From the NCBI GenBank assembly GCA_964388715.1, contig CAYMBN010000009.1, positions 1 to 53,727 on the forward strand: a stretch of 53,727 bases of DNA, written 5' to 3'. Under the pieces are notes generated by a model. That model made no database searches, was not told the DNA's origin, and saw only the letters and a list, made by a program, of their open reading frames with translations. The stretch comes from an uncultured Methanosarcinales archaeon (lineage in GTDB: Archaea; Nanobdellota; Nanobdellia; Woesearchaeales; CAYMBN01). Below, in pieces: positions 3,001-29,811 of the stretch (the first letter of the stretch is position 1; each line of letters begins with the position of its first letter). The position numbers and the translations under genes are program-made.

Positions 3001-6000
3001 TAATAATGCACTAAACACTTCTCCAACAACAAGAACACGATATACAACTCCAACCGGCTTTAATCGAAGCAAAGGCTCATTATCTTTATGGGCAAAACAT
3101 TATGGTGGTGGAACCGGAGATGAATGGTTTGAAATACAGGATGGAAATCATGGAATATTATTATACAATTCTGCTACTAATGGAAATCTAGCATCATATT
3201 TCATGGGCTATCTAAGATATAATCTACATTGTACAGATGCCAAATCAAGATGGCACAATATTGTCCTTGTTTGGGATGTTGATGACATTGGAACAGAAAA
3301 AGGAAGTTATAGATTATACTGTGATGGTGTTAAGAAATTTGCAACCAACCGTACCTGGACTCAAAATACAACAGACTTTGGAGGTTCAATTACTTTTGGT
3401 GATGACCGTGGCAGAAATAACAGAGTAAGTATTGACGATGTTATATTATGGCACAACATTGATCTAACAGATGAAGAAATTCTAGATCTTTACACTAGAT
3501 CATATCTTCACCTTAATGTTTCAGTTCGAACCTCAAATGACAATATAACCTGGAGTAACTGGAAAGTTCACACAAAACCAGGCCAAAAAACAGACCTCTC
3601 AGGAAGATATTTACAATACAAAGTTAACATGCTCTCTAATAAAAGTGCTTACACTCCAGAACTTCATAACATTACATTTAATTATATTGCTCCTGGAACA
3701 GATAACACAGGCAATTACATACACTCATTCAGTGCACCAAACACTTCAGGAACTCATGAACTTAAAGTCAACTCTTCACTTGGTTGGTTACCAATAGAAC
3801 AAACCTCTTCAATAAAAGTATTACCAGCTGACTTACAAACATCAATTAACATTAACCCAGCTATTCACACAACAAACCCAATCACAGTAATGCCAACCAC
3901 AAATGTTCATATCTCTGGAAAACTTAACCTAACAACAGGAGCAAATATCCACAACAACAAAATCCAACTCTTTGTTGACAATTATGAAATAGGCAAAAAA
4001 CAAAAAACATTCTCAGAACAAATAACACTAGGCAAAAACCTATTCAACAACTACAAACTAAATGATGAATACACTTCAGAATGGATAAATGCAAACCAAG
4101 AGGTACATTGGAACAAGATTGACTTCACAAAACACACAACATCAAACAACCTTAACCAAGGATTAGTACTTTACCTACCATTTGACAAAGATGCAAAAGA
4201 CTACTCAGGACAAAATCATAAAATAATTTGTCTTAATAACAGTATCTGCCCTAACCTAATAGACAATGGAAAAAGTAATAGTGCTTATGAATTTAATAGA
4301 CAAGGACTTTTTATCCCATATTCAAAATCAACTGATCTAACAAGTACTAGAACTATTTCAGTATGGGTTAAACTAAATCAAAGTGGAAATTATGGTGGTG
4401 TTGTTGTTGGAAAACCAGATCTCAAAAACACACTAATTTTTTACAATAATAGATTTACTTATTATTTTGGATCAGCAACAGCAAGATTAGAAAAATATCA
4501 ATCATCTAGTTTTGATAAATGGTATCATCTAGTTGTTGTAAAAAATGAAACACATATGATACTTTATTTAAACAGTGAACCAATCAGTTCAGCATCTGTT
4601 TCAACTACACCATCATCTTCAAGAGAAATAAATATTGGTTACAGATATGATGGTTCTCCAAAAGATTGGTTTGAAGGAACAATTGATGAAATAAGAATGT
4701 ACAACAGATCTCTTTCACCAGATGAAGTCAAACAATTATACAGCAAAGACCTTACCAATCTAAACATCTCCACAAGAACATCTAACAACCCTGATGAATC
4801 AACAACAGACTGGAAAACCCACACAACCACAGACTCTCCAATAAACCAACAAGCACAATACTTACAATACAAAGTATCAATGTCAACAGAAGATAACGAG
4901 TACACTCCAATACTAAACCACTTAACACTTGATTACAACACAATCATAACAAATGATTATGGTATTTACAATTACTCATACCTAACACCAAGTGCAGAAG
5001 GTATTTATGAAATAAAAACAAATGCATCTTACTTATCCTTAAATAACCAAGAATCAATCTACATAAACATCTCTGACTTTATGCCACCAATATTCACATT
5101 CAACCAACCAACACCAGATCAAAACACAATAACAACAAACACAAACCAAATAATCAACACCACAATAACAGAAGGAGCACTCAAAAACCTAACTTATAGT
5201 TGGACAGACCATGCATATCATGATGATAATCTAGTTTTGGATTTAAGTCTAGATGAAGATTCATCTGTCGTTAAAGATAAAAGTGGACACAATAATGATG
5301 GTACTGTTAATGGTGCTGCTTTTGTAAGTGATGGTAAACATAATGGTGGTTATAACTTCATTAGTACTGAAAATGATTATATTCGAATACCACATTCTTC
5401 AAGTTTATTGATAAAAAATAATATCACTATGGGAATTTGGTTTAAGCCAAGTAAAGGATCCACTCAAGCTGGTTGGTCAAGTTTATTTAGTAAGAGAGAT
5501 AGTTCCTCTTCGTATCGTATTGGTTTGAGATCATCTGGTAGTTGTGGTTATGGTATTCAATTTGAATATGGTACTCAGAGTCTACAGAGTGATTCTGATT
5601 GTGATTTAAGTATTGGAAACTGGCATCATATTGTTGTGACAAGACAAGATGATGGCACTATGAGTATATATATAGATGGGGTTCTTAATAAACGAGCTTT
5701 ACTTTTAGCTGGGGAGATGGGAATTAATGGTTACCCTATTGATATTGGCGGTGATCCTTACTGGAAGAGATGGATCAACGGTACAGTTGATGAAGTAAAA
5801 ATCTGGAACAAGGTATTGTCTGAACTTGAAATAAAACAACAATATGAATCAAATGGAAGAACAAAAAAATACAATTATTATGATGATTCCTTAATCTCAA
5901 TGTTTGACTTTGATAATCATTCAAAACTAAATGACTTATCATCTTATGAAAACCATGCAACTTGCTTCAACTGTCCAACCTACACACAAGGAAAATCAGG

Positions 6001-9000
6001 TGGAGCATATGACTTTGATGGTGTTGATGATTACCTTAACTTTACATTAAGCTCAGGCTTCCCTTATACCCATGGATCAATGGAATTATGGTTTAAACCA
6101 AATCAAGCAAGCAATGAAATTAGTAATAATTTCAACTTATTCAGTACAGAATCAAATAAAAGATTCTACTTAACATACAGAGCAGATAAAGATGACTTTT
6201 ACTTTACACATAATGGTAATGGTTGTGGTGGATTTTATGCAGGCACAGAAACTGTTTCATTTAATGCAAATGAATGGCAACATGTATTAATTACCTGGAA
6301 TAATAATCCACACACAGTTGAATTTTATTTCAATGGAAACAGACTTACTTTTGATGCAGGTAGTAAAAAACTAATTTGTAAAGGTGGACACAGCTCAAAC
6401 CTATTCTTAGGATACAATGATTATGGTAAAAACAATTATTTTGATGGTGCAATTGACGAATTCCGTATGTGGAGCAGAACATTAGATGAACAAGAAATAA
6501 AACACCGTTACAATTCAAACTTCAAAAAGACTGACCTAAACAACTGGATATTCAATACTCCACAAAATAATTTAGATGATGGAATCTACCAATACTATTT
6601 TGATGCTTCTGACAAAAAAGAACAACAAAACTCAGAACAAAGAACTATTACAGTTGACACAACTCCACCAACAATACAATTTACACCACCAACACTCCAA
6701 GACAACAAAACAATTAACATAAGAGAAATGGACATAAACATTTCAATAACAGAAGCAAACCTAGATCAAATAATTCTTAATGTTACCTCAAACCTAATCC
6801 CAACAGCAAACTATTCATTATACGATGATGACCTTCTCCTAATGTACAACTTTGACAAAGTATCTGCTTTAGAAGAAACAGATACAAAAGTCATTGACAT
6901 AAGTCAATATGGTTATGATGCCACAATCAATGGAGCAACATACACAACCCAAGGAAAATATAATGGTGCTTATGAATTCAATGGTATCAGTGATTTCATT
7001 TTACTAGATGAAAAAGCCAACTTCAACTTAACACCACCAATATCAATCCAAGCATGGATAAAACCAAACCAAGCAAATCCATTCAAAGAACTAAACCAAT
7101 GCTTCATAAATCTCACTGTTTTAAATGAAAAACTAAAAACAAATCAATGGAATCATGTCATAGCAACATGGAATGGTTCTGAAGTAATATATTATTTAGC
7201 AGGCATAAAAGACTCAACACACACTCTTACATGTAATGCTCAAGACCAAAAACCCACTCTCTCCACATTAGTAGCAGCCCTAACTAGAATGATAAACGGA
7301 ACAATTGACGACTTAAAAATATGGAAAAGAACCATTTCCAACGAAGGAGAATCACATTTACAATATGTTTCAAACCTACAAAAACATAACTCAGACAAGT
7401 GGACAATGTATCAAAGAATTGGTAAAGGAATAAGACTGCCTGATGCAAATTACACATACCAATACTTTGCAAGAGACAAAGTTAACCACCTAATTCAAAC
7501 AGAATTAAGAAAATTCACGCTTGACGCAACACCACCAAGATTCCACAACTTAACCATAAACTCACCTAAAATAAATGAAAAAATATACTTTAACCTAACA
7601 CTAACAGAAAACCAAAAATTAAACTCATACACATTCAGCTGGAACCATTCAGGAACATGGACAAATTACACTTACAGCATCACAGGTCCTGAACATTTTG
7701 TATCAGAACAAAGAACAATCACACTCCCGCACCTTTTAACAATAGCCTATGCATTCTACGCAGATGACATAAACAACAACAAAAACAACACAGGAATCCA
7801 AACATTCACAATAGCTAACACACCACCAACATTTGACCAAGATCCTACAGTGAAAATTGTACAACCAGGTGAAAACCTTAATTATGATATTGACTGCAGT
7901 GACGCAGACAACCAAGCAATCACTTATTATGACAACACAACACTCTTTAACATAAATCCCACAACAGGAATCATTATGGACACTCCAACAGACGCAGAAG
8001 CAGGTAATCACACAATAAAAATCATTTGCAGTGACAGTTATAATAACACAACCAAACTATTCAAATATGCAATAATTGACGTAACCTCACCTACTTGGTC
8101 AAACAACAGAGTAAGCAACTCATCTCCAAAACATAATGATACAATCACATTCAACATCAACTGGAAAGATAATGTGCAACTAGATACATACATCTTTAGT
8201 TGGAATGATTCAGGTACCTGGGTCAACTTTACACATGACATAAACGGCACATCACACCTAGTTTCAGAACAAAAAACAATCACAGCAACACGCAGTGACA
8301 CAATTGCATGGACATACTATGCAAATGATACTAGCAGAAACAAAAACAAATCAAACATCTGGACACTTACAGTATCAAACTCAAGACCACAATCAAGAAA
8401 CACATCAATTGACCCAACAGACTTATTTACAAACCTAACAGCTACAATAAAAGGATTATGGACTTTCTTTGACTATGACCGTGACACACAAACAAATTAT
8501 CAAACAAAATGGTTCAACAATTCAAAAGAAATAACAAGATTAAGAGACAAAACAAGCTTCAACAGTCAAAACACAACAAAAGGAGACAATTGGACATTCA
8601 GTATAAGAGTCCACGATAGTTATACATGGTCAGATTGGTACAATTCAAGTGAATTCACTATCTTAAGAAACACTTCCCCAATAGTAAACTTTGTAAACAT
8701 CTCACCAAACCCAGCAGAACCAGAAGCTAATCTAAATTGTATAGTTAACATTACCCATGTAAGATTAAAATCATTCAAAGTTAACTTCACATGGTACAAG
8801 AATGGTACAAGAAACATGACCTGGGATACAAGAGTTAATTGCACAAACGGAACTCTGTGTTACACAAACAAATTTGTACCAAACCTAGATACAAAATTAG
8901 ATGACAAATTCATCTGCTCAATACTAGCATTTGATGGTTACAATTATACTGGTTGGATTAACTCATCTGAAATAACAATAAAACCAAAACCTCCTGTAAA

Positions 9001-10498
9001 AGTACCAGATCCAAGCCAACCATCAGGTCCTGGTCCAAGTTCAAGTAGCAGCTCAGGTAGTGGTAGTAGAACAAGTATAATAACCAGAACAGCTGAAGTT
9101 GAAAAGAATCTTAAAATAGTTGTACCACAAATAACGCAAATCTACAAAGGAGAAGACATTACTCTACCAGTTACACTAATTAACAACGGTTCAATAAGAC
9201 TAAACAACATCAAAGTACAAGTTGAAGGTACTAGCCAAGATTTATCCTTTAAATTAAGTGAGGGAGAAGTTACCCAACTTAACGCAAAAGAACAAAAGAA
9301 ACTAAATTTACTAATCAAAAGCAAAAACATAACAGGTGTACACAAACTAAAAATCAAAGCACAATCAGATAAACCTTCATTAGAAGACACAGAATCAATA
9401 ATAATAGAAGAAATACTCACAGAAGATGAAGAAGAAATTGTAAAACTTTACCAAAAAGTAATCTACTTACTAGATTCAAGTCCAGAATGCCTAGAAATAA
9501 AAGAACTAGAATCACAAGTAAAAGAACAAATCAATAAAAATAATTTCAAAAGAGCAAAAATTCTTGTTAACACTTTAATTGAACTCTGTGATGAACTAAG
9601 AAACATGGGTGAAAAACCAACATATTCCACCAATGACATTATGGATTACTATGATTATGTTAAAGAACTCAAGAAAAAGAACATAACAACCAAACAACAA
9701 ATTACTTTAGAAGGAAATGTTACAACTATCAACAAAATAATAACAAATAACGAAGAAGAATCCATTGATGATATCTTGGTTATTGAAGCAATTGACAAAC
9801 AAATTGCAGAAAACATGGATAATATTGAGTTCCTAACTCCAAATTATGAAGTAACTGAATCAGGTGAGTCAGTCCAATGGAAATTTAAAGAGATTCCTGC
9901 AAAGAAAAGTATTAGCATAACATACAAAGTAAAAGGAGATCTCAGAAATAAACTTTCTTTAAACACAACATCACTCTTACCAGACAAAGAATCAATCATT
10001 GGCAAAAAAGGATTTAATCTTAGAATTCCTGCAGTAATAGATTTATCTCGTTCAACTATCTTATCAACTGCAACAGGCACAATTATCGGAACAATTGCTT
10101 TAGCACACTTAATATATTCATTCAAGAAAAAGAAATCAAAGAAAACAAAACACCATAAAATACACACAAGCCCTAAAAAATCAAAGAAAAAGAAAAAATC
10201 ATCAACCAATATGCGCAAGTTCCTCCACGATAATTTTGGTTTATTTAAAACAAAAGCAGAACTTGAAAAAATTAAAAGATTAAAAGCAATGAAAAAAGCA
10301 GAGAAATTCAGATTAAAAAAACAGAGAAAAAAATCTAAAGGGAAATCTAAAGGTTTCAGATATCCACAATCAAAAAAACTATCTCCAATAGCAAAAAAAC
10401 TATTAAAAAAAGGTTTTAGCGAAAAACAAATCGAAGATGTTTTTATCAAGCAAGGATTTTCAAGAAAGATAATTAAAGATGTATTCAAAAATATATGA
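2..10498 (+). CDS. Giant membrane-anchored surface protein/adhesin with about 8 LamG (concanavalin A-like) domains, Ig/cadherin-like domains, a C-terminal TM helix and a basic cytoplasmic tail; 5'-truncated
   Basis: The frame of ORF 257..10498 is open from base 2 (SITEKNLGKITYNF...GTVMFWFKP), so the real start lies upstream of the window. Repeated LamG motifs: LMYNFD...G(K)YNGA(F/Y)EFDG...W.KP...W.H(V/I)...Y.(D/N)G...IG...G.IDE...(W/Y)NR.LS..EI. A P/S linker sits at ~8980-9070 and a hydrophobic helix ILSTATGTIIGTIALAHLIYSF at ~10058-10123, followed by a K-rich tail. Confidence 0.9.
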   Translation, partial: SITEKNLGKITYNFKEIKEDQLIEQTIAHFDGNQLTTNGQEQLSTLPRTYSIGKFGQAINLTQSGSVSYNLTKYPTLVNATQGTVMFWFKPTWDENDGVCHGLFEFLPTSNYKNRISLNKRESNVMHFTTWGSNNVQRGAYSWNGDWTGNQWHHVTITYGNNIAPKFYFDGVNRITSIADPRDETDPIDKIRIGNDYLVCTKGIQSLVDEFKTFNEVLSPEEVKEEYEFDLKHYALYDDSLFLMYNFDNIETIGENSTQIVDLSHYRRNASISNVYTPKFRQGKYGLALELNSSNDDVGVSNTRPPSKDMTFAIWAKPTYKSSAGKYLFASEGGNRAGSKGLYYVNDKFGFYVYNNSKKGFTVQSGSVGAFNKWNHVVGVIDYTNKEIRIYVDGELKGTKKLIGTFPSSLNLFKIGARTATGHTNYHFRGLIDEVRVYSRALPSDEIKQLYMYNLKKSDIDKWELYIDQKKDIGTSLYSGDYSYKVSATDFNGQESSGQRNITIINQIQPGIHFVPNTPEDKTATTNPILEVNTSIAATDTPTKLTYNFNGQNYNLYDNSLALFYNFDNISAIGESYNKTGRSTVMDLSQYGYHSQTYNFDYYNPTGGKYNGAFEFDGINDHIFVQKSIIGDNNSYTTSFWTKLYPTGKFQYPIVNIYEGAYGSNRKGFEINIKNSGEVYLQSVGWNMYSNSITTTDTIDWGKWQHIATVFSIEDNTMYIYINGKLSKSATIGHKGFRDYSKLDIGGYYQPSSSASRYINGSIDKVMMWNRSLSPDEIKFLYNSNLNKYEKDKWLFHTKHNLTNDKEYRFDTYTFQTSAEHADGTINSTEKRTIAITTLDNPQINLNINKQTFLKGEIVNISGKLFSDDQGLSNRPINVYTDNNNQNQHSSITHSTYKDFEPGTVNETYILDDKIALVQYTPRYRPKRYYKGDYLSPIIDAGKTVYWDNTDWSEPAPYQDSINLNYKDNVMFMCNFDQGTDCYGLDKPYFNNNSLTSGVFNNALNTSPTTRTRYTTPTGFNRSKGSLSLWAKHYGGGTGDEWFEIQDGNHGILLYNSATNGNLASYFMGYLRYNLHCTDAKSRWHNIVLVWDVDDIGTEKGSYRLYCDGVKKFATNRTWTQNTTDFGGSITFGDDRGRNNRVSIDDVILWHNIDLTDEEILDLYTRSYLHLNVSVRTSNDNITWSNWKVHTKPGQKTDLSGRYLQYKVNMLSNKSAYTPELHNITFNYIAPGTDNTGNYIHSFSAPNTSGTHELKVNSSLGWLPIEQTSSIKVLPADLQTSININPAIHTTNPITVMPTTNVHISGKLNLTTGANIHNNKIQLFVDNYEIGKKQKTFSEQITLGKNLFNNYKLNDEYTSEWINANQEVHWNKIDFTKHTTSNNLNQGLVLYLPFDKDAKDYSGQNHKIICLNNSICPNLIDNGKSNSAYEFNRQGLFIPYSKSTDLTSTRTISVWVKLNQSGNYGGVVVGKPDLKNTLIFYNNRFTYYFGSATARLEKYQSSSFDKWYHLVVVKNETHMILYLNSEPISSASVSTTPSSSREINIGYRYDGSPKDWFEGTIDEIRMYNRSLSPDEVKQLYSKDLTNLNISTRTSNNPDESTTDWKTHTTTDSPINQQAQYLQYKVSMSTEDNEYTPILNHLTLDYNTIITNDYGIYNYSYLTPSAEGIYEIKTNASYLSLNNQESIYINISDFMPPIFTFNQPTPDQNTITTNTNQIINTTITEGALKNLTYSWTDHAYHDDNLVLDLSLDEDSSVVKDKSGHNNDGTVNGAAFVSDGKHNGGYNFISTENDYIRIPHSSSLLIKNNITMGIWFKPSKGSTQAGWSSLFSKRDSSSSYRIGLRSSGSCGYGIQFEYGTQSLQSDSDCDLSIGNWHHIVVTRQDDGTMSIYIDGVLNKRALLLAGEMGINGYPIDIGGDPYWKRWINGTVDEVKIWNKVLSELEIKQQYESNGRTKKYNYYDDSLISMFDFDNHSKLNDLSSYENHATCFNCPTYTQGKSGGAYDFDGVDDYLNFTLSSGFPYTHGSMELWFKPNQASNEISNNFNLFSTESNKRFYLTYRADKDDFYFTHNGNGCGGFYAGTETVSFNANEWQHVLITWNNNPHTVEFYFNGNRLTFDAGSKKLICKGGHSSNLFLGYNDYGKNNYFDGAIDEFRMWSRTLDEQEIKHRYNSNFKKTDLNNWIFNTPQNNLDDGIYQYYFDASDKKEQQNSEQRTITVDTTPPTIQFTPPTLQDNKTINIREMDINISITEANLDQIILNVTSNLIPTANYSLYDDDLLLMYNFDKVSALEETDTKVIDISQYGYDATINGATYTTQGKYNGAYEFNGISDFILLDEKANFNLTPPISIQAWIKPNQANPFKELNQCFINLTVLNEKLKTNQWNHVIATWNGSEVIYYLAGIKDSTHTLTCNAQDQKPTLSTLVAALTRMINGTIDDLKIWKRTISNEGESHLQYVSNLQKHNSDKWTMYQRIGKGIRLPDANYTYQYFARDKVNHLIQTELRKFTLDATPPRFHNLTINSPKINEKIYFNLTLTENQKLNSYTFSWNHSGTWTNYTYSITGPEHFVSEQRTITLPHLLTIAYAFYADDINNNKNNTGIQTFTIANTPPTFDQDPTVKIVQPGENLNYDIDCSDADNQAITYYDNTTLFNINPTTGIIMDTPTDAEAGNHTIKIICSDSYNNTTKLFKYAIIDVTSPTWSNNRVSNSSPKHNDTITFNINWKDNVQLDTYIFSWNDSGTWVNFTHDINGTSHLVSEQKTITATRSDTIAWTYYANDTSRNKNKSNIWTLTVSNSRPQSRNTSIDPTDLFTNLTATIKGLWTFFDYDRDTQTNYQTKWFNNSKEITRLRDKTSFNSQNTTKGDNWTFSIRVHDSYTWSDWYNSSEFTILRNTSPIVNFVNISPNPAEPEANLNCIVNITHVRLKSFKVNFTWYKNGTRNMTWDTRVNCTNGTLCYTNKFVPNLDTKLDDKFICSILAFDGYNYTGWINSSEITIKPKPPVKVPDPSQPSGPGPSSSSSSGSGSRTSIITRTAEVEKNLKIVVPQITQIYKGEDITLPVTLINNGSIRLNNIKVQVEGTSQDLSFKLSEGEVTQLNAKEQKKLNLLIKSKNITGVHKLKIKAQSDKPSLEDTESIIIEEILTEDEEEIVKLYQKVIYLLDSSPECLEIKELESQVKEQINKNNFKRAKILVNTLIELCDELRNMGEKPTYSTNDIMDYYDYVKELKKKNITTKQQITLEGNVTTINKIITNNEEESIDDILVIEAIDKQIAENMDNIEFLTPNYEVTESGESVQWKFKEIPAKKSISITYKVKGDLRNKLSLNTTSLLPDKESIIGKKGFNLRIPAVIDLSRSTILSTATGTIIGTIALAHLIYSFKKKKSKKTKHHKIHTSPKKSKKKKKSSTNMRKFLHDNFGLFKTKAELEKIKRLKAMKKAEKFRLKKQRKKSKGKSKGFRYPQSKKLSPIAKKLLKKGFSEKQIEDVFIKQGFSRKIIKDVFKNI

Positions 10499-14073: not shown

Positions 14074-15762
14074 TTATTTGTGGGTAAACCAGAAAACTAA
14101 TTTATCCTTCTTTTTTTCATCCAACCTACAGAAACCAAACCTTTCAAGTTGTACAATATCTCCTTTCTTTAACTTACTCAAACTTTTTTCACCATAACCT
14201 TCTGTGTAATGTCCTTCAGGCATCATAACCGCAACATTAACAAGCTCTTTATCCTTAGGCAACCAATGTATAATCCTTTCTCCCTTATTTTTATATTTCT
14301 CATACTCTAAAGAATCAAAAACAAACTTCTTACCTTGTTTTTTAAAATTCAAACAATCCATTAACCTGTACAACTTCCCAGCTTTAAATTCCTTATGATC
14401 ATGTTTTGAAACATAAAACACTTGTTTTGTCTTAAACTTTCTACCACCTTTAACATTACTAGGATGCAGATCAAGTTCAATATCTTGTTCAGGTGCTTTT
14501 TCTACTTTAATTTCAACAGGATCAGCTACAAAAAAATATCTGTTTGAAGCAGCATCAATAACATCTTTATTAAACGCATTAATAACTTTAAAAAACTCTT
14601 TACCACTTACTGTTTTATCATTCTTACTTGGTCCAACATCAATTGAATACTTAATAAAAGCTTCTGGTTGATAACCTCTCCTTCTCAAACTTAATAAAAA
14701 TGGTAATCTAATATCATCCCACCCAGTAAACTTACCAGATTCAATCAATGGTCGAGTTTTTGAACAACTTACTCTAAGATCCAAAAAATTAATCCTTCCA
14801 GTATGAATATGCTCAGGAACCTTTTTCTTAAAATACTTAAACAAGTAAGATTGTTTTTCAGTATTAGTAATATGATCTTTTGATTTTATAACATGCGTCA
14901 TATTCATATCCATATCATCAATACCAACAGAAAAACTCATTAAAGGCCACACTCTATACTTCTTACCTTGCCTTGGATGTTTCATATCAAGTATTCTAAA
15001 TGCAGGCCAATCTCGAATAGCAGGATTCTTATGCTTAATATCTGTCTTAATTCTTAAAATACAATCACCAGGCTGATACTTAGTAAACATATCTTTCCAT
15101 TCTTTCATATTTTCTTTAGCAGACTTTTTTCTACAAGGACAAACTTGCATTTTATGTGCCTTTTCTCTAAAATCTTCACTTTTACAATGACAAACATATG
15201 CTTTACCCATTTTAATAAGATCTTCAGCATATTTGTAATAAACTTTCATCCTATCAGATTGTACATAAAACTCAGCAATATTATCTTTTGTAACCCAATC
15301 AGCATCTTTTGGAATCAAATCATAAGCTTTATCATAAATATTTTGAGGATTTGTATCACTTATTCTTAAAATTAATTTACCATCATACATTCTACAATAC
15401 TCAGAATTAACACCTAATGTAAACGCATGCCCAACATGCATTGGACCACTTGGACTAGGTTCAAACCTCATCACTACTTTACCCTTTTTAGCATTCTTAA
15501 GCTCAGGCAATCCTGTTCTTTTCTCTTTTTTCTTCTCTTCCAGCAACTCAGGAGCACTCTTTTTAAGCTCTTCAAGCTGCTTCTCTAGCTTCATAGAATT
15601 AACTTCCTTAACAACCTTAGCAACCTCTTTTCCAATATCCTTTGCCGTCTTCTTAAGCCCAGGCTCTTCTCCAAACAATTTACCAATCACAGCCCCTGGA
15701 TTAGCCTTTCCATTGAATTTAACAGCATTCTGAAGAGCATATTTCCTTATTTTATCCTTCAT
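14074..15762 (-). CDS. gltX: Glutamate--tRNA ligase (archaeal type)
   Basis: VVMRFEPSPSGPMHVGH (HIGH motif), LRISDTNP, AYVCHC, GWDDIRLP, QLERFGFCRLD; archaeal N-terminal helical extension. Confidence 0.97.
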   Translation of the reverse strand: MKDKIRKYALQNAVKFNGKANPGAVIGKLFGEEPGLKKTAKDIGKEVAKVVKEVNSMKLEKQLEELKKSAPELLEEKKKEKRTGLPELKNAKKGKVVMRFEPSPSGPMHVGHAFTLGVNSEYCRMYDGKLILRISDTNPQNIYDKAYDLIPKDADWVTKDNIAEFYVQSDRMKVYYKYAEDLIKMGKAYVCHCKSEDFREKAHKMQVCPCRKKSAKENMKEWKDMFTKYQPGDCILRIKTDIKHKNPAIRDWPAFRILDMKHPRQGKKYRVWPLMSFSVGIDDMDMNMTHVIKSKDHITNTEKQSYLFKYFKKKVPEHIHTGRINFLDLRVSCSKTRPLIESGKFTGWDDIRLPFLLSLRRRGYQPEAFIKYSIDVGPSKNDKTVSGKEFFKVINAFNKDVIDAASNRYFFVADPVEIKVEKAPEQDIELDLHPSNVKGGRKFKTKQVFYVSKHDHKEFKAGKLYRLMDCLNFKKQGKKFVFDSLEYEKYKNKGERIIHWLPKDKELVNVAVMMPEGHYTEGYGEKSLSKLKKGDIVQLERFGFCRLDEKKKDKLVFWFTHK

Positions 15763-15884: not shown

Positions 15885-17798
15885 ATGTCTGCTGAAAACA
15901 CTAATACAGAAAGTGCTATCCCTGAATATAAACTTTATTTAATAGACCGTGTTGCACAAAACTTTAATATTACTGATGTAAGAGCTAAAGTACGTGAAAG
16001 AAGAAGATTAATTGAACAAGGCAAACTTGATCCAAATGCTCCTTTTATTTATTCTATTCAAGAAAAACCAAAAACCAATTATTTATCAAAACTAAAATAC
16101 CTAGCACTTGCTTTAGTTCCAACTATAGCTATTGCTTATTTTTCATATGAACATTTATTTAATAAAAAACCAAACCTTGAAAATTTAATTAATGAACCAC
16201 AAATTACTAAAAATGTTGAAGCTCATTTAAATTCTGTAGCAGACATTACTCCTAAACAATCTGCTGTACAGAATTTAGCAGAGGAGAAACCTGAGGTACA
16301 ACCAGTACCTCAGGATAAACCTCCTACTTTTATTCCTTATACAGGAGATTTAGTTGATTTAGCATATGATGTTGTAATTATCAAAAGACCTCATGGAGGT
16401 TACTTTGAAGAAAAAGGTTGTATCTCAACTGGTGCAATTTTTTATGATAAATCAGGCAGAGAAATGATAAGTGAAGTAGACTTAGTTTCAGCTATAGATG
16501 ATATCCTTGCAAAAAATATTTCAAGAAAGTTCCCTGGTGTAAAAGTAATATTTTTAAGAGATTATGATAAGTATCTTTCACCTAAAGAAGCAGGATCAGA
16601 ACTTACAAAGCTAATAAGAAATCTTAGTAGAGATTCATTTTACTTCCCAGAACTAAACGCAGTTATATCAAAAGACTTTTATGAACTTAAAGGTAATCAA
16701 TATGTTCTTAAGGAAAATGGAAAAGGAGCAGGAAAATTCGCAGACATTAGAGATAAAATCATTGAATTAATCGTTGAAAAAGAATTTGTAAAACTTTTAA
16801 CCAATAATGGAGTATACAGATACTTAGTTGGTGACGAATTATATATCAGAGATAATGGTAATGTTGAAAAATATTCACAATACACTGACAGGAAAAAACA
16901 AGAGATCAGACAAATGGTTAAATCAGAAAAAAATCAAGAAATCGAAACCAAATTACAAAGTTTCCTTAATAACACTCACGAACAAGTTGCTGGTAGATAT
17001 ATCCTTAAAGATGGTTATTTAACACAAGATGCTACATCTTTAGAAAAAATACTTGTACTTGAAATGCCTCACTTTAATTCAGCTGCACGTATAACATACA
17101 ATCACATAAAAAATGCTTATAACATAAGAGACAAAGAACAATCTTCAAAAAAACTTAAACAATATTGTAAAAAGTATGGTTTACGTACAGGTTCAAGAGA
17201 AAGCATGAGACTCAAACTACTTAATTATGTTAACATAATCTCTAACTTGTCAGAGGAAGAAGTAAATAAGTACTTACATTCAGATCTTGAAAGAGTTTAC
17301 TCAAGATTAGGTATTAGTACAAAAGTAAGAGATAAAGGTGTAATTAGAGAAATGACTGATAATGAACTAAGAGGAAGATTACGTTGGATGATCCCTAATA
17401 GAGGAACATTCTTTTTATACCCTACCAATGAAGTTAATCCTACAGATGAAATAGAACTTGCTATGTATATTGGTAAAGAACTACAAAGAATAGGATTAAA
17501 AAGAGATAAAAGAGGAATCGTTAATCGTTCAACAGATGTTAGAGGCAGAAACAACTTTATAAGTTCTATGCAAATGCCAACAAGTGTATATCAGGAACCA
17601 ACAATGTTATTACTAGAAGCACTAAACATTCAAAATAAAACAGATCGTGAATTTGCTGAAAAATTCATAGAACAACCAGAGATTTTTGCCAACGCAGTTG
17701 TTAAAGGTTTATATGAATATAGTAAACAAAAAACAAGAAATATAGTCCAAAGTTCATCTAGATCAATAAACAACTATTCAAGAAATCAAAAAAGATAA
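15885..17798 (+). CDS. Membrane-anchored N-acetylmuramoyl-L-alanine amidase-like protein (Amidase_3 fold with large insertions)
   Basis: TM at aa ~72-88. Motifs in family order: VVIIKRPHGG (H170), ISEVDL..I...LAK..PGVKVIFLRDYD (E197), MPHFNSA (H396), RGTFFLY, LA..I.KEL....RDKRG, PTMLLLEALNIQN..D (E578), FANAVVKGLYEY. Confidence 0.75.
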   Translation: MSAENTNTESAIPEYKLYLIDRVAQNFNITDVRAKVRERRRLIEQGKLDPNAPFIYSIQEKPKTNYLSKLKYLALALVPTIAIAYFSYEHLFNKKPNLENLINEPQITKNVEAHLNSVADITPKQSAVQNLAEEKPEVQPVPQDKPPTFIPYTGDLVDLAYDVVIIKRPHGGYFEEKGCISTGAIFYDKSGREMISEVDLVSAIDDILAKNISRKFPGVKVIFLRDYDKYLSPKEAGSELTKLIRNLSRDSFYFPELNAVISKDFYELKGNQYVLKENGKGAGKFADIRDKIIELIVEKEFVKLLTNNGVYRYLVGDELYIRDNGNVEKYSQYTDRKKQEIRQMVKSEKNQEIETKLQSFLNNTHEQVAGRYILKDGYLTQDATSLEKILVLEMPHFNSAARITYNHIKNAYNIRDKEQSSKKLKQYCKKYGLRTGSRESMRLKLLNYVNIISNLSEEEVNKYLHSDLERVYSRLGISTKVRDKGVIREMTDNELRGRLRWMIPNRGTFFLYPTNEVNPTDEIELAMYIGKELQRIGLKRDKRGIVNRSTDVRGRNNFISSMQMPTSVYQEPTMLLLEALNIQNKTDREFAEKFIEQPEIFANAVVKGLYEYSKQKTRNIVQSSSRSINNYSRNQKR

Positions 17799-17811
17799 AA
17801 AATTATAATTT

Positions 17812-18597
17812 TTATTTTGTTACATTAGTTTGATTATCAATTTTATATGTTAACAATTCCTGTTTTATTTTTCTAATTGGATTAACTAAAAGACATTTTC
17901 CTGTCAGTCTTCTATACTTTTGAATATATGTCTCTTTTGATCCCTTATCACCTAAAACTCCTTCCATTTCTTCATAAAGCATATTAGAAACTGCAACTGC
18001 CTCAACTAATTGTTCAGCAGCTTTTTTAAAGTGAACATTCATTTCTTCTACTGTTCCAGAATATGGTTTCTCAGCTCTTTTATATGATGGGTTTAAATCT
18101 GTTTTTAATTCAATTGTACCCAAATTATCAGGCATATCTATTTTTATTGGATTACTTAGTAATATTCTTGCTCTTTTTAAATTTTCTTTACTAATACCAT
18201 ATGCTTGCTTAAGCTCATCAACTTCTTTTTTTGTAATCTCCAAAATCTTAACTTCTTGTAGAAAATACTTAACAGCTTGTTCAACATGTTCTGAAACTTT
18301 ACTTAATTCTCCTAAATAATGTGTTTCAGAATCATAAGATAAATATCCAAAATTTTCATTTAATTTTACTGTGCCAAGATTATCTGAAACTCTTACTTCC
18401 AAAGAATTAGGGCTAAACAGTTTAACTAATTTTAAACTTTCTTCACTTACCATATATTTTCCTTTACTTCTTTGAATTGCTTCACATACATCAACAACCA
18501 CTCTTATTTCTTGAGTATCTCTTCTAAAAGATTTTAATAGGTCATCATCAACATAACCTTCTAAGTCCACAATAGGGTCATAATCTTTCATTTTCAT
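17812..18597 (-). CDS. Hypothetical protein with two tandem internal repeats
   Basis: 261 aa; VRVSDNLGTVKL...YLGELSKVSEHVEQAV matches IDMPDNLGTIEL...YSGTVEEMNVHFKKAA. Confidence 0.75.
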   Translation of the reverse strand: MKMKDYDPIVDLEGYVDDDLLKSFRRDTQEIRVVVDVCEAIQRSKGKYMVSEESLKLVKLFSPNSLEVRVSDNLGTVKLNENFGYLSYDSETHYLGELSKVSEHVEQAVKYFLQEVKILEITKKEVDELKQAYGISKENLKRARILLSNPIKIDMPDNLGTIELKTDLNPSYKRAEKPYSGTVEEMNVHFKKAAEQLVEAVAVSNMLYEEMEGVLGDKGSKETYIQKYRRLTGKCLLVNPIRKIKQELLTYKIDNQTNVTK

Positions 18598-19517
18598 TAA
18601 GGTGTATATGGTAATTGAATAGCTTTATCTTCCATAGGCTCTGGACTAAAATAAATATAATCACTGATACCCTTCTTTTTACCAAAACCAACTTTCCAAT
18701 TTACTTTATTCTCATCGTCTTTAACAGTACATACTTTTCCTTTGTTTTCTGATGCAATAGTTTCATATTCATTAGCATCTTTAAATCTTTGTCTGAGACT
18801 TTTCATAACCATTACCAATTCAATAAAATTTTGAACAGGTTCGACAAAATCAGAAGATAAATTGTCAGTATTAACTTCTAATGCATCAAAATCAACTTCA
18901 TCAAAATTACATTCTTTAAAATTACCATCTTCCTGTTTAACATAAACACTTGCACTATCAAGAGTCTTATCATTATATTTTATTTTTACATAAACATTAT
19001 CATTAATAAAAATTCCAAGATCATTTCCATCATTAACAAGGTCACCAACACTTTGTTTATAACTCTCACTATAAACTCCTGAGTCCCTTAATCTTTTTTG
19101 GGTTTGTTTAGTTGCCTTTAGTAAATTTCCTAGTCTCTTATCTGCCTGAACAACAATATTTAAATCTTCTTCTTTAATACCATACTTTTTAAGATCAAGC
19201 TCATCAAAACTAATGTTTTTAAATTTACCATCTATTTGTTTTTCAAGGAAAGAAACGTCAACTGTTCTTATACTCTTTGGAACAACATCTTCAACACTTG
19301 CTTGTGAATCTCCATATTCAATTTTAACATAAAGATCTCCTTTAACATGTATCACTCTTTCTTTAAACACATCAAGTTGATCATCATTTCCTTGTAATCT
19401 TTGATAAGATTTTTTTGAATCACCTTGCAATTGAACTTTATTACCATAATTAGTAAAAGCATTTAATGCTCCTTGTAAATTAAAACGTTTTTTTACTTTT
19501 TTTTCAAGATTTTCCAT
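18597..19517 (-). CDS. Hypothetical protein with two tandem internal repeats
   Basis: Likely start is the ATG at 19517 after GGAGGAG (track start 19538). DLYVKIEY...KQIDGKFKNISFDELD matches NVYVKIKY...KQEDGNFKECNFDEVD. Confidence 0.75.
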   Translation of the reverse strand: MENLEKKVKKRFNLQGALNAFTNYGNKVQLQGDSKKSYQRLQGNDDQLDVFKERVIHVKGDLYVKIEYGDSQASVEDVVPKSIRTVDVSFLEKQIDGKFKNISFDELDLKKYGIKEEDLNIVVQADKRLGNLLKATKQTQKRLRDSGVYSESYKQSVGDLVNDGNDLGIFINDNVYVKIKYNDKTLDSASVYVKQEDGNFKECNFDEVDFDALEVNTDNLSSDFVEPVQNFIELVMVMKSLRQRFKDANEYETIASENKGKVCTVKDDENKVNWKVGFGKKKGISDYIYFSPEPMEDKAIQLPYTP

Positions 19518-19519
19518 TT

Positions 19520-20051
19520 TTATTCTCCTCCTTGACACATTCTAGCATGATAAAATTTTCCGTCATTCATATTTTGTATAACTTCTTCAAATCCACTCAA
19601 TTGGGTGTCTGAAACTCTTACTTGAACACCCATTGGTAAATCATAATTTCCATCATCTTTTCTTACTTTAGTTGCGAGACCAATTGCAGCAAACAAAGCA
19701 GTTTTTTTGTCCATTTCTAAACTATTTAATCTTTTTTCTGCTTGTTCTACTGTTATTGAATCGCGATCATAATTGTCCATTAATTTAATCTTAATACCAT
19801 CTTTTTCTATAATACCTTTTTCAGTTAATTCTTGATAATTTGAGTTTAACATATCATTAGCTTTTCCAAGCTCTTTATGAATTATATTGAAATGTTTTCT
19901 GTATTCCCTTAGTTGATTATCATTAGGCACAAATATTGCATCTGNNNNNNNNNNNNNNNNNNNNNNNNNNNNNNNNNNNNNNNNNNNNNNNNNNNNNNNN
20001 NNNNNNNNNNNNNNNNNNNNNNNNNNNNNNNNNNNNNNNNNNNNTACTCAT
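19520..20051 (-). CDS. Hypothetical protein spanning the assembly gap
   Basis: The frame of ORF 19520..19930 stays open up to the gap (DAIFVPND). On the other side of the gap an ATG at 20051 is preceded by GAGGT and a TATA box. Confidence 0.6.
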
Positions 20052-20076
20052 TATACCTCTAAAAAACAAGAACCCA

Positions 20077-20113
20077 TATATAAACCTTTCGGTTTTTTAA
20101 CTACTAAAAAGTA
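20077..20113 (-). promoter_or_regulatory. TACT-N4-AGTA box plus BRE/TATA for the three-gene operon
   Basis: The minus strand reads TACTttttAGTA, then 17 nt including CCGAAAGG, then TTTATATA. Confidence 0.65.
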
Positions 20114-20181
20114 ACAAATACTCCAAAACCCAAGAAATCAACCTCTACAAGCCTTAAAAACAAAGAAAAAAAAGAATAAGA

Positions 20182-21036
20182 TTATCCTTTTAAATAAGCA
20201 GCTTCTTGCTTAATTTCCATAGTTACTTTGTGCATTGCTTTATGAGCAAATTGAAGTGTATTTTTATCATCTTTTCTAAATAACTTAGCATCACTTTTTG
20301 GGATAAGATTGCCTATTTCAAGTTGTCCTAAATGTTCATAATCTTCTTGAACTTCTACTAAAAGATATCTTAATAATTTAAGACTGTTCATCATTACTTC
20401 ATGTGCAATATCAACCTCATCTAGTAAATTTTTTAAGATTAATAATGCATTTTTTTTAGTCACTTCTTCATTTTCCAGTTTTTCTTCTTGCCTATCAAAG
20501 AAAAACAACTTTCTTCCTTTAAATGTCCAATTTCTAAAGTAACCAACAACACCTTCATTAAACCGATATTCCATTGACATTGCTCCTGCAACACCAATAT
20601 TACCATCAGCAACTTCCATGTCAGCTAATACAATTGCTCTTTCTCTTTTAAGATACCTTCTTTCTCTTGTTTTGAACTTTGCAATTTTTTTGCTAACTAC
20701 TTTACCTAATTCTGTTTTTTCAAGAAAATCCTTGTGTTTTTCTATCCATTGGTTTAAATGTTGAAATGAACTTTTTAAAACCAGTAATGTATAAAAACAA
20801 ACACTATAAGCTCCATGTACTGCATAAACACTTCTTTCTGCTTTATCTTTCTCTTTATTTTCAAATTCATCTAAAAGATGTTTTCTCGCAGCTTTGAAAG
20901 CCTTTTTTATATCCTTTTCAGCTGCTGGAACTTCCTTCATTTCTTCTTTAGTAGCTAATCTTAAATACCTTTTAGTAAGTATATTTTTTCCGTGACCAGC
21001 TAATCCAGATTCTTCAATATGTGGTATCTCTACCAT
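20182..21036 (-). CDS. Hypothetical helical protein
   Basis: ORF 20182..21045. The ATG at 21036 follows GAGGTG, and there is a TTTAAATA at ~21099-21106. Confidence 0.75.
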   Translation of the reverse strand: MVEIPHIEESGLAGHGKNILTKRYLRLATKEEMKEVPAAEKDIKKAFKAARKHLLDEFENKEKDKAERSVYAVHGAYSVCFYTLLVLKSSFQHLNQWIEKHKDFLEKTELGKVVSKKIAKFKTRERRYLKRERAIVLADMEVADGNIGVAGAMSMEYRFNEGVVGYFRNWTFKGRKLFFFDRQEEKLENEEVTKKNALLILKNLLDEVDIAHEVMMNSLKLLRYLLVEVQEDYEHLGQLEIGNLIPKSDAKLFRKDDKNTLQFAHKAMHKVTMEIKQEAAYLKG

Positions 21037-21147
21037 TTTATCCACCTCAAATATTTTTTAATAAGCACATATACTTATTATGTTTTTTATTTCCTCTTTA
21101 TTTAAACTTTTTGTCTAAATTATCATGAATTTATGATTAAACAGTAA

Positions 21148-22928
21148 TTATAAATCTTTTACAATTTCCTTAGCTTTTTCTTCAATCATTTTTTTATTTG
21201 GCAATGCCCTTAATTTCTTCAATATTCCTTTTTTTCTGTATATTGGTGTTTCAGTTAATACTTTTTCAGCTCCCTCAGGTTCTCCTCTTTTTAAAGCATC
21301 TATTATTTTGTTTTTAACTTCCTCAACAGTGTCTTCAATGTTTATTATTTCACTAAATTTAAGGTGAAATGTTTTTTCAGATTTTTTTACCAAAAATAAA
21401 ATACCAGCACTTTCAACTTGCTTAACCTTAAATTCAACACCTTCTCTTAACTCAACATTTTTATTACTTAGTAAATTTGATGTTTGATCATGATGTTCCT
21501 TATCATATTTTTTAATTATTCTTACCAATTGTCCTCTAGTAAAAAACCCCTTACCTTCCTTAATCCTTTCAACTTTATTTCCATTAACCTTTTTAAACAC
21601 ATTATTATACCATCCCTCTTTTTTGCTTAAAAACAATATTAACTTATGAAGTATTGCAAGATCATGCCTAATCTTAATATAAAATTTAACTTCATGTTTC
21701 TCAAATGATTCCTTTAACGATTTAGCATTGTCTATAAGATTTTTATTAACCTCTTTATCAAAACCTTCTCTCAACTTATTTAAAACATCTTTTTGATTAT
21801 TATGTGATCCACCTATCAATTCACTTTGTGAATTAATTAACTTCTTAAACTCTTCAAGATCACTTTCTAATGCAGCTAACCTTGTTTTTAATTCCTCAAC
21901 AACCACGTTGAATCCTTCTTTGAATTTTTCATTGGTTTCTTCAACCTTTTCAGGATCAACTTTTTTAAGGAAAACAACCAATCCTTTCTTATATTCCTCA
22001 AGTATTTCCTCTACTTCTTTATACATAGCAACGTAATTATGAACATTCTTAGATAAAACCTTAACAGCTTTCTCATCATAACCAATAACCTTTTTATCAA
22101 GCTTTAACAACTCCTCATTTATTTTTAATATATCCTCAACCAATTTATTTAACTCATTAATTAATTTTAAATTTTTAACTTTTATAAATTCTTTATTTCT
22201 CTGAACCTCTGTTTTCCTTATATATTCTATCTGTGACATGTTCATTCCTTTTTTAAGAAGTTGTTTAACCTCTTCTTCATTATCAGTATAACTCAAAACC
22301 TCTTTATGTTTTTCACCTTTTCCAGTAATTGCAGCTTCTATTAAATCACCTGGGAAATTTTTTCTTATTTTTTCCTCAATTTCATCCTTAAATTCCTTAT
22401 TTTCTTCTTTAGCCATTGCCTTTTTCCTTTTTCCATTAAACCCTAAACATAATTTTAAATGTTCTTCAACCAATCTTTTCTTTTCCTTTTCTAATTCACC
22501 AATCTTACTAACCTTCTTCTCCATCTTTTTAACTTGATGCTCAGAAACCTTTTTCTCCATCTTCCTTCTTCCAAAAACAAATGCAAGAGCTACTAAAGCA
22601 ACTGCACTACCTTTCAAAAAAATTGGTTTACCAGCAGTCTTCTTAACACTTTCCCATACACTTTCTACTTCACCTGGTTCCATCTTTAATTCAATCAATT
22701 CAACAAGATCATTATACTTATCTTCACCAATATATTCCTTAACTTCTTGCACCGTAATATAATTTTTAATCTCATCCAATAAATCCTGATTTTCAGTTTT
22801 TTTTGCTCCTGCAATAGACTTTTCAAGAGCATCCAAAAACCTTTCTTTAACAATATTTTCTTCAGCTACAACAAAGATATTCATAACTAATAAAACCATT
22901 ACAAACATCCACATAAATCTCTTAAATT

Positions 22929-22932
<4 letters not shown>
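21148..22932 (-). CDS. Signal peptide, short ectodomain, single TM and long cytoplasmic coiled coil
   Basis: N-terminal MKFKRFMWMFVMVLLVMNIFVVA; TM GSAVALVALAFVF followed by GRRK; ATGA overlap with the upstream gene. Confidence 0.8.

Positions 22933-29811
<6,879 letters not shown>

Follow-up and report, generated by a model that had tools for sequence, protein, structure and literature searches.

The gene under study lies in a window of 53,727 nucleotides, the whole stretch of DNA that was analyzed. The source genome is archaeal by its rRNA, 1.3 Mb in size, and belongs to the DPANN archaea. The population is found in a marine habitat, and the searched collections contained no further genome of its family-level lineage. 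The gene occupies positions 15885 to 17798 of the forward strand, stop codon included, and according to the listing of open reading frames (ORFs), it starts with ATG and encodes 637 amino acids (aa), assigned here to a divergent, membrane-anchored protein of the Amidase_3 family. Residues 1 to 65 (15885 to 16079), upstream of a hydrophobic segment and with a Lys-rich flank, form a predicted cytoplasmic region of helical nature; a single-sequence model placed helices at residues 11 to 26 and 30 to 44 with low confidence. The single hydrophobic segment follows at residues 66 to 88 (16080 to 16148). It contains the top Kyte-Doolittle window, the most hydrophobic 19 residues being 70 to 88 (mean, 1.45), and the Lys-rich flank on its N-terminal side fits a single-pass anchor with the N terminus inside and the C terminus outside. 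The hydropathy profile is consistent with the N-terminal transmembrane anchor noted in the first-pass annotation of this DNA. A linker rich in Pro, Gln, and Glu (residues 89 to 162; 16149 to 16370), without a family match and disordered in the models, would connect the membrane to the catalytic domain.

The catalytic domain is split into three pieces, all encoded on the forward strand. The N block (residues 163 to 226; 16371 to 16562) was delimited by a jackhmmer domain, hhalign, shuffled controls, and a structural model. It comprises strand 1, a PHGG loop with H170, helix 1 from E197, strand 2, and an LRD motif. H170 (codon, 16392 to 16394) and E197 (16473 to 16475) are the predicted first and second zinc ligands, with E193 (16461 to 16463) as the alternative register for the latter. 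Insert 1 (residues 227 to 388; 16563 to 17048), recognized by alignment gaps and low pLDDT, separates this block from the core strand KILVLEMPHF (residues 389 to 398; 17049 to 17078), which carries H396 (17070 to 17072), the predicted third zinc ligand. Directly after H396 comes insert 2 (residues 399 to 506; 17079 to 17402), defined by alignment gaps and the model. The C block (residues 507 to 620; 17403 to 17744) was found by profile search, shuffles, hhalign, and the model, and contains the strand GTFFLYP, the helix ELAMYIGKELQ, the strand TMLLLEAL with E578 (17616 to 17618), and the final helices. The sequence contexts are VVIIKRPHGGY for H170, ISEVDLVSAI for E197, LVLEMPHFNSA for H396, and TMLLLEALNIQN for E578. 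The four family residues had been listed in this order before, and their positions could be read directly in the ORF.

It had also been suggested that insertions could hide the domain from routine annotation, and this was indeed the case. A Pfam search returned no PF01520 row for the query even at an E value of ≤10 (gathering score, 27 bits). No Amidase_3 match was found for it in NCBIfam, in PHROGs, or by phmmer against the PDB, and a six-frame search of the whole source genome with PF01520 gave 0 candidates, with matches in 8 of 14 control genomes. A word-indexed sequence search with the protein gave no match. When 1.84 billion representatives were searched by phmmer, the sole relative was a fragment of 170 aa, 100% identical to residues 344 to 512. 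Four DNA runs hold a near-identical copy of the gene, with one single-nucleotide polymorphism (C to T at 15962), and they therefore give no handle on selection; among RNA runs, none was listed with the sequence. Several weak matches were set aside. The lone match across the genomes of 60 relatives (15.9 bits; E value, 0.0023) sits in the linker and was dismissed as meaningless. A Reb1_MybAD match at residues 352 to 413 (23.1 bits; cutoff, 27), a SAP-like match in insert 2 (residues 422 to 449; E value, 0.011, under the cutoff), and further weak Pfam matches in the inserts, all under the cutoff, were regarded as noise from helices rich in Lys, Glu, and Gln.

Significant similarity was found when the query was compared with a profile of bona fide Amidase_3 members. 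This profile (A4) was made from 24 archaeal Amidase_3 domains, with the query excluded. It recovered CwlD, CwlV, AmiA, AmiB, AmiC, LytH, and Rv3717 in the PDB with E values from 1e-37 to 6e-8 and is thus a genuine Amidase_3 profile. The query scored 24.8 bits (E value, 5.3e-6 among 7308 sequences), and none of 5000 composition-matched shuffled copies reached this score, the maximum being 11.6 bits. Among the 2306 ORFs of the source genome, it was the only one above 9.0 bits, the score of the runner-up. Two of three jackhmmer seeds also retrieved the query before its inclusion in the profile, with E values of 4.8e-4 and then 5.8e-5 for seed L005, and 0.011 and then 6.8e-4 for seed L013. With the third seed, L008, the query had no significance (E value, 0.78). 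The controls, 200 shuffled copies and one reversed copy, gave E values of about 0.1 or worse. The nearest clusters in language-model features were Amidase_3 (0.85), which was taken as a lead only.

The contribution of each piece was then assessed. With hhalign, two collinear blocks were obtained, one at residues 505 to 612 (E value, 1.1e-4) and one at residues 164 to 235 (E value, 6.9e-3, or 3.8e-4 when an unpublished genome was included). The C block was strong, at 24.2 to 27.5 bits, which no shuffle equaled in sets of 5000 and 2000. The N block was modest alone: its jackhmmer domain had 7.3 bits, and in a shuffle test, 38 of 2000 copies equaled the score of the block. The His-396 block was not significant alone (177 of 2000 shuffles; 27 to 71 of 1000 with an earlier profile). 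The H396 site was the best location for the hidden Markov model (HMM) of the His block within residues 236 to 515. The three blocks were collinear, and each was the best site in its own region. In an unsupervised MAFFT alignment with the 24 archaeal domains, the catalytic columns were occupied by H170, E197, H396, and E578 of the query; these columns held His, Glu, His, and Glu in 22, 24, 22, and 24 of the 24 domains, respectively. Residues H196, E211, H265, and E373 of Escherichia coli AmiC fell in the same profile columns, E578 being paired with E373. The predicted zinc triad His...Glu...His sits at conserved family columns, and E578, which ends the penultimate core strand, is the putative catalytic glutamate. 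Overall, the family has 18 columns with a conservation of 70% or more, and the query agreed with 11 of them.

The register of the second zinc ligand was ambiguous, because HMMER paired the family glutamate with E193 whereas MAFFT and hhalign paired it with E197. Helix 1 of the model begins at residue 197, which favors E197. For the third ligand, E258 (in FYFPELNAV), H465 (in KYLHSDL), and the site DELYIRDN, a MAFFT placement with four sequences, were considered and dropped. H396 was preferred because the His-block HMM, MAFFT alignments of 25 and 26 sequences, and the model all chose residues 395 to 398.

The spacing between H170 and E197 is about 12 residues above the family norm. Strand 2 (end at about residue 226) and the His-396 strand (start at 389) are separated by about 160 residues where the family has about 25, which makes the net insert about 135 to 140 residues long. 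From H396 to the next core strand, GTFFLYP (residues 507 to 513), there are about 108 residues, against about 10 to 15, a net insert of about 100. These values from the alignment and the model match the roughly 140 and 100 aa estimated earlier. A single-sequence AlphaFold model was uninformative (pLDDT, 34). The alignment-guided model had a pLDDT of 84 to 94 in the N block, 87 in the His-396 strand, and 84 to 95 in the C block, and predicted one alpha/beta domain, built on a six-stranded sheet, that could be superposed on solved Amidase_3 members; since the core of the model derives from aligned Amidase_3 sequences, it is not fully independent evidence. Foldseek, which the first-pass annotation had proposed for a structural check, gave no match at an E value of ≤0.001. 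Insert 1 was modeled as helices and a three-stranded meander, with low pLDDT and no recognized family, and an Atlas search with it was uninformative (best score, 0.78). Insert 2 was mostly helical and adjoined the active site in the model, with a pLDDT below 50 over most of its length. The family profile, the alignment, and the predicted fold support the central claim of the first-pass annotation, a cryptic Amidase_3 domain split by large inserts, and we regard the protein as a real but extremely divergent variant of the family.

As context, we examined a gene on the reverse strand (24736 to 29811) that encodes a membrane protein of 1691 aa with an SLT domain (28798 to 29016) and a Peptidase_M23 domain (26983 to 27270), both assigned by domain searches. 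The M23 domain scored 58.8/65.6 bits. The SLT domain scored 20.1 bits with hmmscan, below the cutoff of 21.3, and 25.6 bits in a six-frame search; phmmer with the SLT region found nothing relevant in the PDB. The protein has the motifs NEV...GLMQI and HSGID...HLHFE, which we take to be SLT and M23 motifs. The SLT and M23 domains previously noted nearby thus reside in one protein, and families that cleave amide, glycosidic, and cross-link bonds do lie within about 14 kb, the span from 15885 to 29811 being 13.9 kb. The source genome has a single M23 domain and two SLT domains; the M23 domain and one SLT domain are located 7 to 12 kb from the amidase gene. This gene is monocistronic and outside the SLT/M23 operon, on the opposite strand at a distance of about 7 kb from the gene for the SLT+M23 protein, and it converges on the final gene of that operon. 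This operon neighbor (313 aa) had one match (E value, 4.2e-4) besides its own copy among 201 genomes, the source genome included. Because both it and the amidase are orphans, synteny was unusable. A scan for bacterial-type promoters and terminators showed no enrichment, but such a scan does not apply to archaea.

By inference, the protein may cooperate with the neighboring SLT+M23 protein in a toolkit for three bonds, although the position of its gene outside the operon speaks against this. Two observations are hints in favor of the idea. The second SLT gene of the genome, on contig 4, lies directly upstream of a degenerate amidase-like gene, and 2 of 27 amidase loci of relatives (30 fetched; L030, L032, and L033 excluded) had a peptidoglycan-hydrolase neighbor within 1.5 kb. 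Canonical Amidase_3 was present in 27 of the 301 genomes of the phylum. A penicillin-binding transpeptidase was undetected in the source genome. Mur_ligase_M had one match there, which is uninformative, as archaeal control genomes match too.

We favor, with some confidence, the interpretation that the protein is an active, single-pass extracellular zinc hydrolase, a divergent Amidase_3 enzyme that most likely acts on bacterial peptidoglycan. It would have its N terminus inside and its C terminus outside the cell, the extracellular part being an N-acetylmuramoyl-l-alanine amidase of the PF01520 type with a fold built from the three separated pieces (residues 163 to 226, 389 to 398, and 507 to 620). 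H170, E197 (or E193), and H396 would hold a zinc ion, and E578 would be the general base. Shown on the archaeal surface via the flexible linker of about 70 residues, the enzyme could release the stem peptides of bacterial peptidoglycan from their glycan strands, either where cells touch or on debris. The substrate is most likely foreign, because the 1.3-Mb archaeal genome lacks a detectable penicillin-binding transpeptidase. Bacterial amidases have separate modules for wall binding or regulation, for which the two inserts may stand in; insert 2, right after the third zinc ligand, might take part in substrate binding or act as a gate to the active site. The protein probably helps the archaeon to cut bacterial cell walls.

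Six well-conserved positions were changed: D, P, G, T, S, and G of the family are K167, R168, P169, L224, E393, and L580 in the query. DPG before the first His has become KRP, and the TR motif has L for T. E replaces the S that precedes the second His, and L replaces the G that follows the catalytic Glu. The loss of these positions is compatible with lost activity, and it is conceivable, though unlikely, that the protein is a relic of the Amidase_3 fold that has ceased to hydrolyze and acts as a surface binding or scaffolding module, for example, for glycan strands or partner proteins. Degenerate LytM domains, which activate rather than cut, offer a parallel. In addition to the six noncatalytic positions, Asp-Pro-Gly included, the very large inserts in two active-site-proximal loops and the extreme divergence without relatives would fit such a relic. 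So would the amidase-like remnant on contig 4, which lacks the first His and Glu blocks and has Lys for the second His, indicating that decay of this fold occurs in the lineage. Against such a relic, all four catalytic positions are kept in the query, even though its agreement with the conserved columns is limited to 11 of 18, and the block of the catalytic Glu is the best conserved (27.5 bits).

We regard as improbable a zinc amidase that is active on a substrate other than murein, that is, on an amide bond in the envelope of the archaeon itself or of a host archaeon; pseudomurein-like polymers, glycoprotein linkages, and poly-gamma-glutamate-like material may be named as such substrates. A chance constellation of motifs in a low-complexity, Lys/Glu-rich orphan without any Amidase_3 domain would explain the silence of the curated models, the weakness of two of the three blocks taken singly, and the dependence of the structural model on the alignment, but it is very improbable given that no composition-matched shuffle came near the profile score, that no other ORF of the genome exceeded 9 bits, that the three collinear blocks each lie at the best site of their region, and that the top 14 showed structural specificity.

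The interpretation as an active amidase can be extended in a way that we consider a long shot. The inserts would be a built-in targeting and gating module that silences the amidase on the archaeal surface until the bacterial wall is contacted. The enzyme, the giant membrane-embedded SLT+M23 protein, and the orphan proteins of its 20-kb operon would together make up an apparatus for contact-dependent wall breaching with which the archaeon opens bacterial cells, perhaps with the M23/LytM-fold domain as an amidase activator. EnvC, which activates AmiA and AmiB, is a parallel; by this analogy, a role of the neighboring M23 protein as activator is pure speculation.

DPANN archaea are generally considered to depend on life on other cells, and the means by which they breach the envelope of a partner are largely unexplained. 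Our results suggest that a whole catalytic class, the amidases, can hide behind inserts and divergence. If the protein is active, enzymes for all three types of murein bond adjoin in the source genome, so that a bacterial rather than an archaeal target becomes directly testable for this lineage. The protein would also be a natural example of an Amidase_3 fold tolerating two inserts, each longer than 100 residues, in loops that flank the zinc site, a tolerance that could be useful for understanding the regulation of amidases and for engineering them.

Known members of PF01520 include CwlV (1jwq), CwlD (7rag), a Clostridioides difficile amidase (4rn7), Cwp6 (5j72), and the phage endolysins CD27L (3qay) and PlyPSA (1xov). 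Compared with the approximately 180 residues of these members, the query domain spans about 460, two inserts (about 160 and about 108 residues) accounting for the difference. The PF01520 HMM does not match it, and DPG ahead of the first His as well as another three conserved family positions are substituted. The protein has an N-terminal transmembrane anchor, in an archaeon, without a wall-binding fusion of the LysM, SPOR, AMIN, or SH3 type. AmiA, AmiB, and AmiC of E. coli (8c2o, 8c0j, and 4bin) are autoinhibited division amidases with an insert of about 45 residues after the strand that follows the second His. In contrast, insert 2 of the query precedes that strand and directly follows the second His, one loop ahead of the regulatory domain of AmiA, and its length is more than double. 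In amidases of this type, the regulatory insert has a blocking helix with a Glu or Gln that ligates the zinc, and an interaction helix for a LytM activator; the low pLDDT of insert 2 allows no blocking helix to be asserted for the query. The three enzymes have nothing that corresponds to insert 1.

Peptidoglycan hydrolases have been documented in murein-less archaea and read as antibacterial tools, examples in two surveys being the M23 protein "Woldo" of Halobacteriales, M23 homologues of Nanoarchaeia, and a "large lytic murein transglycosylase" of Woesearchaeota (PMC12352652, PMC9723730). The 1691-aa SLT+M23 protein of the window fits the last type. The surveys used Pfam/CAZy detection, with a wall-binding domain also needed in PMC12352652, and the main text of PMC9723730 does not contain the word "amidase." Although PF01520 is listed among their domains (supplement S10), the query would escape detection; surveys resting on such matches therefore undercount enzymes like it.

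The nearest detectable relatives were canonical Amidase_3 proteins of the same order (L004 to L031), especially L025, L027, and L028 of family f67. Unlike the query, these proteins pass or partly pass PF01520, and their pairwise similarity to it was not significant (E values, 0.42 to 0.94). Many of them have an N-terminal hydrophobic segment, as the query does. L025, L027, and L028 carry inserts of 50 to 55 and about 20 residues at the two insert sites of the query, and f67 reads SPHFD or GPHLD at the second His, a PHF/PHL motif similar to MPHFN in the query.

The 637-residue protein encoded by the ORF at 15885 to 17798 (+), which starts with ATG in the ORF listing of the window, had been proposed in the first-pass annotation to contain an Amidase_3 domain hidden from routine annotation. 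The domain was indeed missed by the routine searches. With Pfam at an E value of ≤10, Amidase_3 was absent and the best rows were sub-threshold matches to Reb1_MybAD and SAP; nothing relevant was found with NCBIfam, PHROGs, or a phmmer search of the PDB. A six-frame search of the whole genome with PF01520 gave 0 candidates, and matches were obtained in 8 of the 14 control genomes. The query had no match in a word-indexed sequence search and no meaningful match in 60 related genomes. When it was compared by phmmer with 1.84 billion representatives, the sole match was a 170-aa fragment 100% identical to it. Judged by these searches, the query is an orphan protein.

Of 301 sampled genomes of the phylum, 27 contained PF01520, 25 of them above the cut-off, and the profiles used to test the query were built from PF01520 domains of the phylum's genomes. 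The first jackhmmer search was seeded with a relative's domain (L005) and run against 163 locus ORFs, L030 included, and 2306 ORFs of the genome. The query reached an E value of 0.0011 in round 2 and of 2.9e-6 (24.3 bits) in round 3, with a profile still free of the query, and matched in an N block (residues 164 to 235, 7.3 bits) and a C block (residues 516 to 614, 16.4 bits). The runs were repeated with L030 left out: before its inclusion, the query had E values of 4.8e-4 followed by 5.8e-5 with seed L005 and of 0.011 followed by 6.8e-4 with seed L013, and it was non-significant (0.78) with seed L008. For 200 shuffled copies of the query and 1 reversed copy, the E values were no better than about 0.1.

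When 24 family domains were aligned by MAFFT without the query, the alignment (A4) matched solved murein amidases with E values from 4.6e-37 to 6.1e-8. The A4 HMM gave the query 24.8 bits (E 5.3e-6 in a set of 7308 sequences), versus 9.0 for the next-best real ORF of the genome; no shuffle out of 5000 reached the query score, the maximum being 11.6. Using hhalign against A4, we recovered a C part at residues 505 to 612 (E 1.1e-4, probability 57%) and, collinear with it, an N part at residues 164 to 235 (E 6.9e-3). The support was uneven from block to block. The C block (27.5 bits, best site 516 to 615) was equaled by 0 of 2000 shuffles and the N block, with its best site at H170, by 38 of 2000; the His block was equaled by 177 of 2000 with the A4 profile (best site 395 to 407) and by 27 to 71 of 1000 with an earlier profile (best site 395 to 413). 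The N, His, and C blocks are collinear, each being the best site in its own region. Taken together, the query is very probably an Amidase_3 homologue.

The query does have the four catalytic-site residues claimed initially (H170, E197, H396, and E578), with flanking contexts as described at that stage. In an unsupervised MAFFT alignment (A3) of query residues 150 to 637 with the 24 domains, E197 and E578 fell into both invariant Glu columns, and H170 and H396 into both nearly invariant His columns. H196, E211, H265, and E373 of Escherichia coli AmiC, the first three of which we take to be Zn ligands and the last the catalytic Glu, mapped to the same profile columns, with E578 aligned with E373. 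The equivalent ligands of AmiA are H65, E80, and H133 (PMC10268282). The second ligand of the query was placed at E193 by HMMER and at E197 by MAFFT, hhalign, and the structural model, in which helix 1 starts at 197; both residues are Glu, with one helical turn between them. Conservation within the family reaches at least 70% at 18 columns; there, the query had 11 matches, 1 gap, and 6 differences (K-R-P for D-P-G before the first His, L for T in "TR", E for S before the second His, and L for G following the catalytic Glu).

AlphaFold2 run on the query as a single sequence gave an unusable model (pLDDT 34). With A3 as the alignment, 488 residues were modeled with a mean pLDDT of 63 and a pTM of 0.55, and the core had 10-residue block means of 82 to 95. 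The confident parts were strand 1, helix 1, strand 2, the H396 strand, the "LA" helix, the E578 strand, and the terminal helices; the inserts had low pLDDT. Because the family alignment informs the core, the model shows consistency and is not fully independent proof. Insertions of roughly 140 and 100 aa had been claimed, and we found about 160 residues between strand 2 (ending at about 226) and the H396 strand (389 to 398), versus about 25 in the family, and about 108 separating H396 from the core strand that follows (507 to 513), versus 10 to 15. A Pfam search gave no known-family match for either insert, and an Atlas search with insert 1 was uninformative.

The SSU rRNA of the genome (1.3 Mb, 31 contigs, 95.75% complete) scored 1381 bits against the archaeal model, and an archaeal LSU adjoins it; the genome is thus archaeal from its rRNA. 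Four DNA runs were essentially identical over the gene. A stretch of 35 bases in insert 2 (17125 to 17159) matched, with 5 mismatches, other organisms' contigs in the four runs, at depths of about 29 to 32 in three and 7.7 in the fourth; the match is A/T-rich and probably arose by chance. Over 19-residue stretches, the hydrophobicity of the query is highest at residues 70 to 88 (Kyte-Doolittle mean of 1.45), which follow a Lys-rich flank, a pattern that fits a predicted N-in single-pass anchor and agrees with the N-terminal TM anchor proposed at first. Upstream lies a divergent archaeal-type Glu/Gln-tRNA synthetase gene (14074 to 15762, -). At the window start, a giant open frame (2 to 10498, +) runs off the edge; it is at least 3498 aa long.

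On the opposite strand, 14 bp downstream, is the last gene of a convergent operon of roughly 20 kb (17812 to 38229, -). It comprises twelve genes, almost all orphans, including large ones of 868, 733, 655, 594, and 563 aa and the 313-aa neighbour of the amidase gene. An AAA/ATPase_2 gene (37084 to 38229) heads it, and a 1691-aa SLT and M23 membrane protein (24736 to 29811, -) lies in the middle. This protein has the only Peptidase_M23 domain of the genome (58.8/65.6 bits) and an SLT domain scoring 20.1 bits, below the cut-off, by hmmscan and 25.6 bits, above it, in a six-frame search; it contains NEV...GLMQI and HSGID...HLHFE, presumably the SLT and M23 motifs. The three families had been said to lie within about 14 kb, and the measured distance was 13.9 kb. 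The other operon proteins had no family match except the one AAA ATPase; a 258-aa protein (32015 to 32791) showed a very weak TrbC/VirB2-pilin match (E 0.14). The operon could encode a secretion, conjugation-like, or cell-contact apparatus.

The second SLT gene of the genome (contig 4, 9794 to 10183, within a 737-aa ORF) is directly upstream of a 277-aa gene (L039, 11492 to 12323). The N-terminal half of the latter's product shares homology with the N-domain of L013-type amidase proteins, the common archaeal form. The last 110 or so residues of the product have no DPGHG or Glu block and a Lys for the second His, keep the "LA" helix and "LEL" strand, and look like a decayed Amidase_3 domain. 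We also screened the neighbours of 27 relatives' amidase loci with flanks of about 1.5 kb (30 fetched; L030, L032, and L033 left out). An SLT neighbour was found at one locus (L021, 588 to 1565, -) and a Glucosaminidase plus VanY/Peptidase_M15 neighbour at another (L014, 1 to 951, +), which suggests that peptidoglycan-hydrolase genes form small clusters in this archaeal order. Together with the contig 4 pair, these neighbours hint that amidase-type and glycan-cleaving genes are linked in the lineage. In the relatives' loci L021/L032 (genome G245), L029/L033 (G109), and L031 (G059), the C-terminal Amidase_3 block precedes the N-terminal one in a single ORF, suggesting circularly permuted or partially duplicated domains. 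In L004 (G106, C20), from a related archaeon, a canonical domain (147.8 bits) lies within a 2515-aa open frame; in this class, amidase domains therefore occur within giant proteins as well.

Beyond homology, residue conservation, and fold consistency, the mechanism is one that we infer. The query would be a zinc amidase, tethered to the membrane and displayed at the surface, that strips stem peptides from bacterial murein; it would complement SLT, which cleaves glycan, and M23, which cleaves cross-bridges, and its inserts may supply substrate binding or gating. We regard this full statement, activity on murein included, as somewhat favored. No transpeptidase was found in a search of the genome, and the single Mur_ligase_M match is uninformative because archaeal controls match too.

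Published work, in the parts consulted, describes peptidoglycan hydrolases of archaea, M23 homologues in Nanoarchaeia, and "large lytic murein transglycosylases" in Woesearchaeota (PMC12352652, PMC9723730), and one survey lists PF01520 among its domains (PMC12352652, supplement S10). Judged by title and abstract, a full-text literature search gave no report of a Woesearchaeota N-acetylmuramoyl-L-alanine amidase, nor did the records consulted on DPANN, peptidoglycan, and amidase report such an enzyme. Since hydrolases in archaea are already published, enzymes of this kind are expected in this setting, and the query is new only as an insert-bearing variant within a known enzyme family. Its interest is moderate and lies mainly in showing that hydrolases can be hidden and in offering a way to test DPANN-bacteria interactions. 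Three relatives of one family (f67: L025, L027, and L028) have inserts of 50 to 55 and roughly 20 residues at the two sites of the query, and their second His, in "SPHFD/GPHLD", resembles that in the query's "MPHFN"; they look like intermediate forms. E. coli AmiA has a regulatory domain with a blocking helix (residues 151 to 194) (PMC10268282). This domain is located one loop beyond the position of insert 2, so that insert 2 lies near, not at, the AmiA site.
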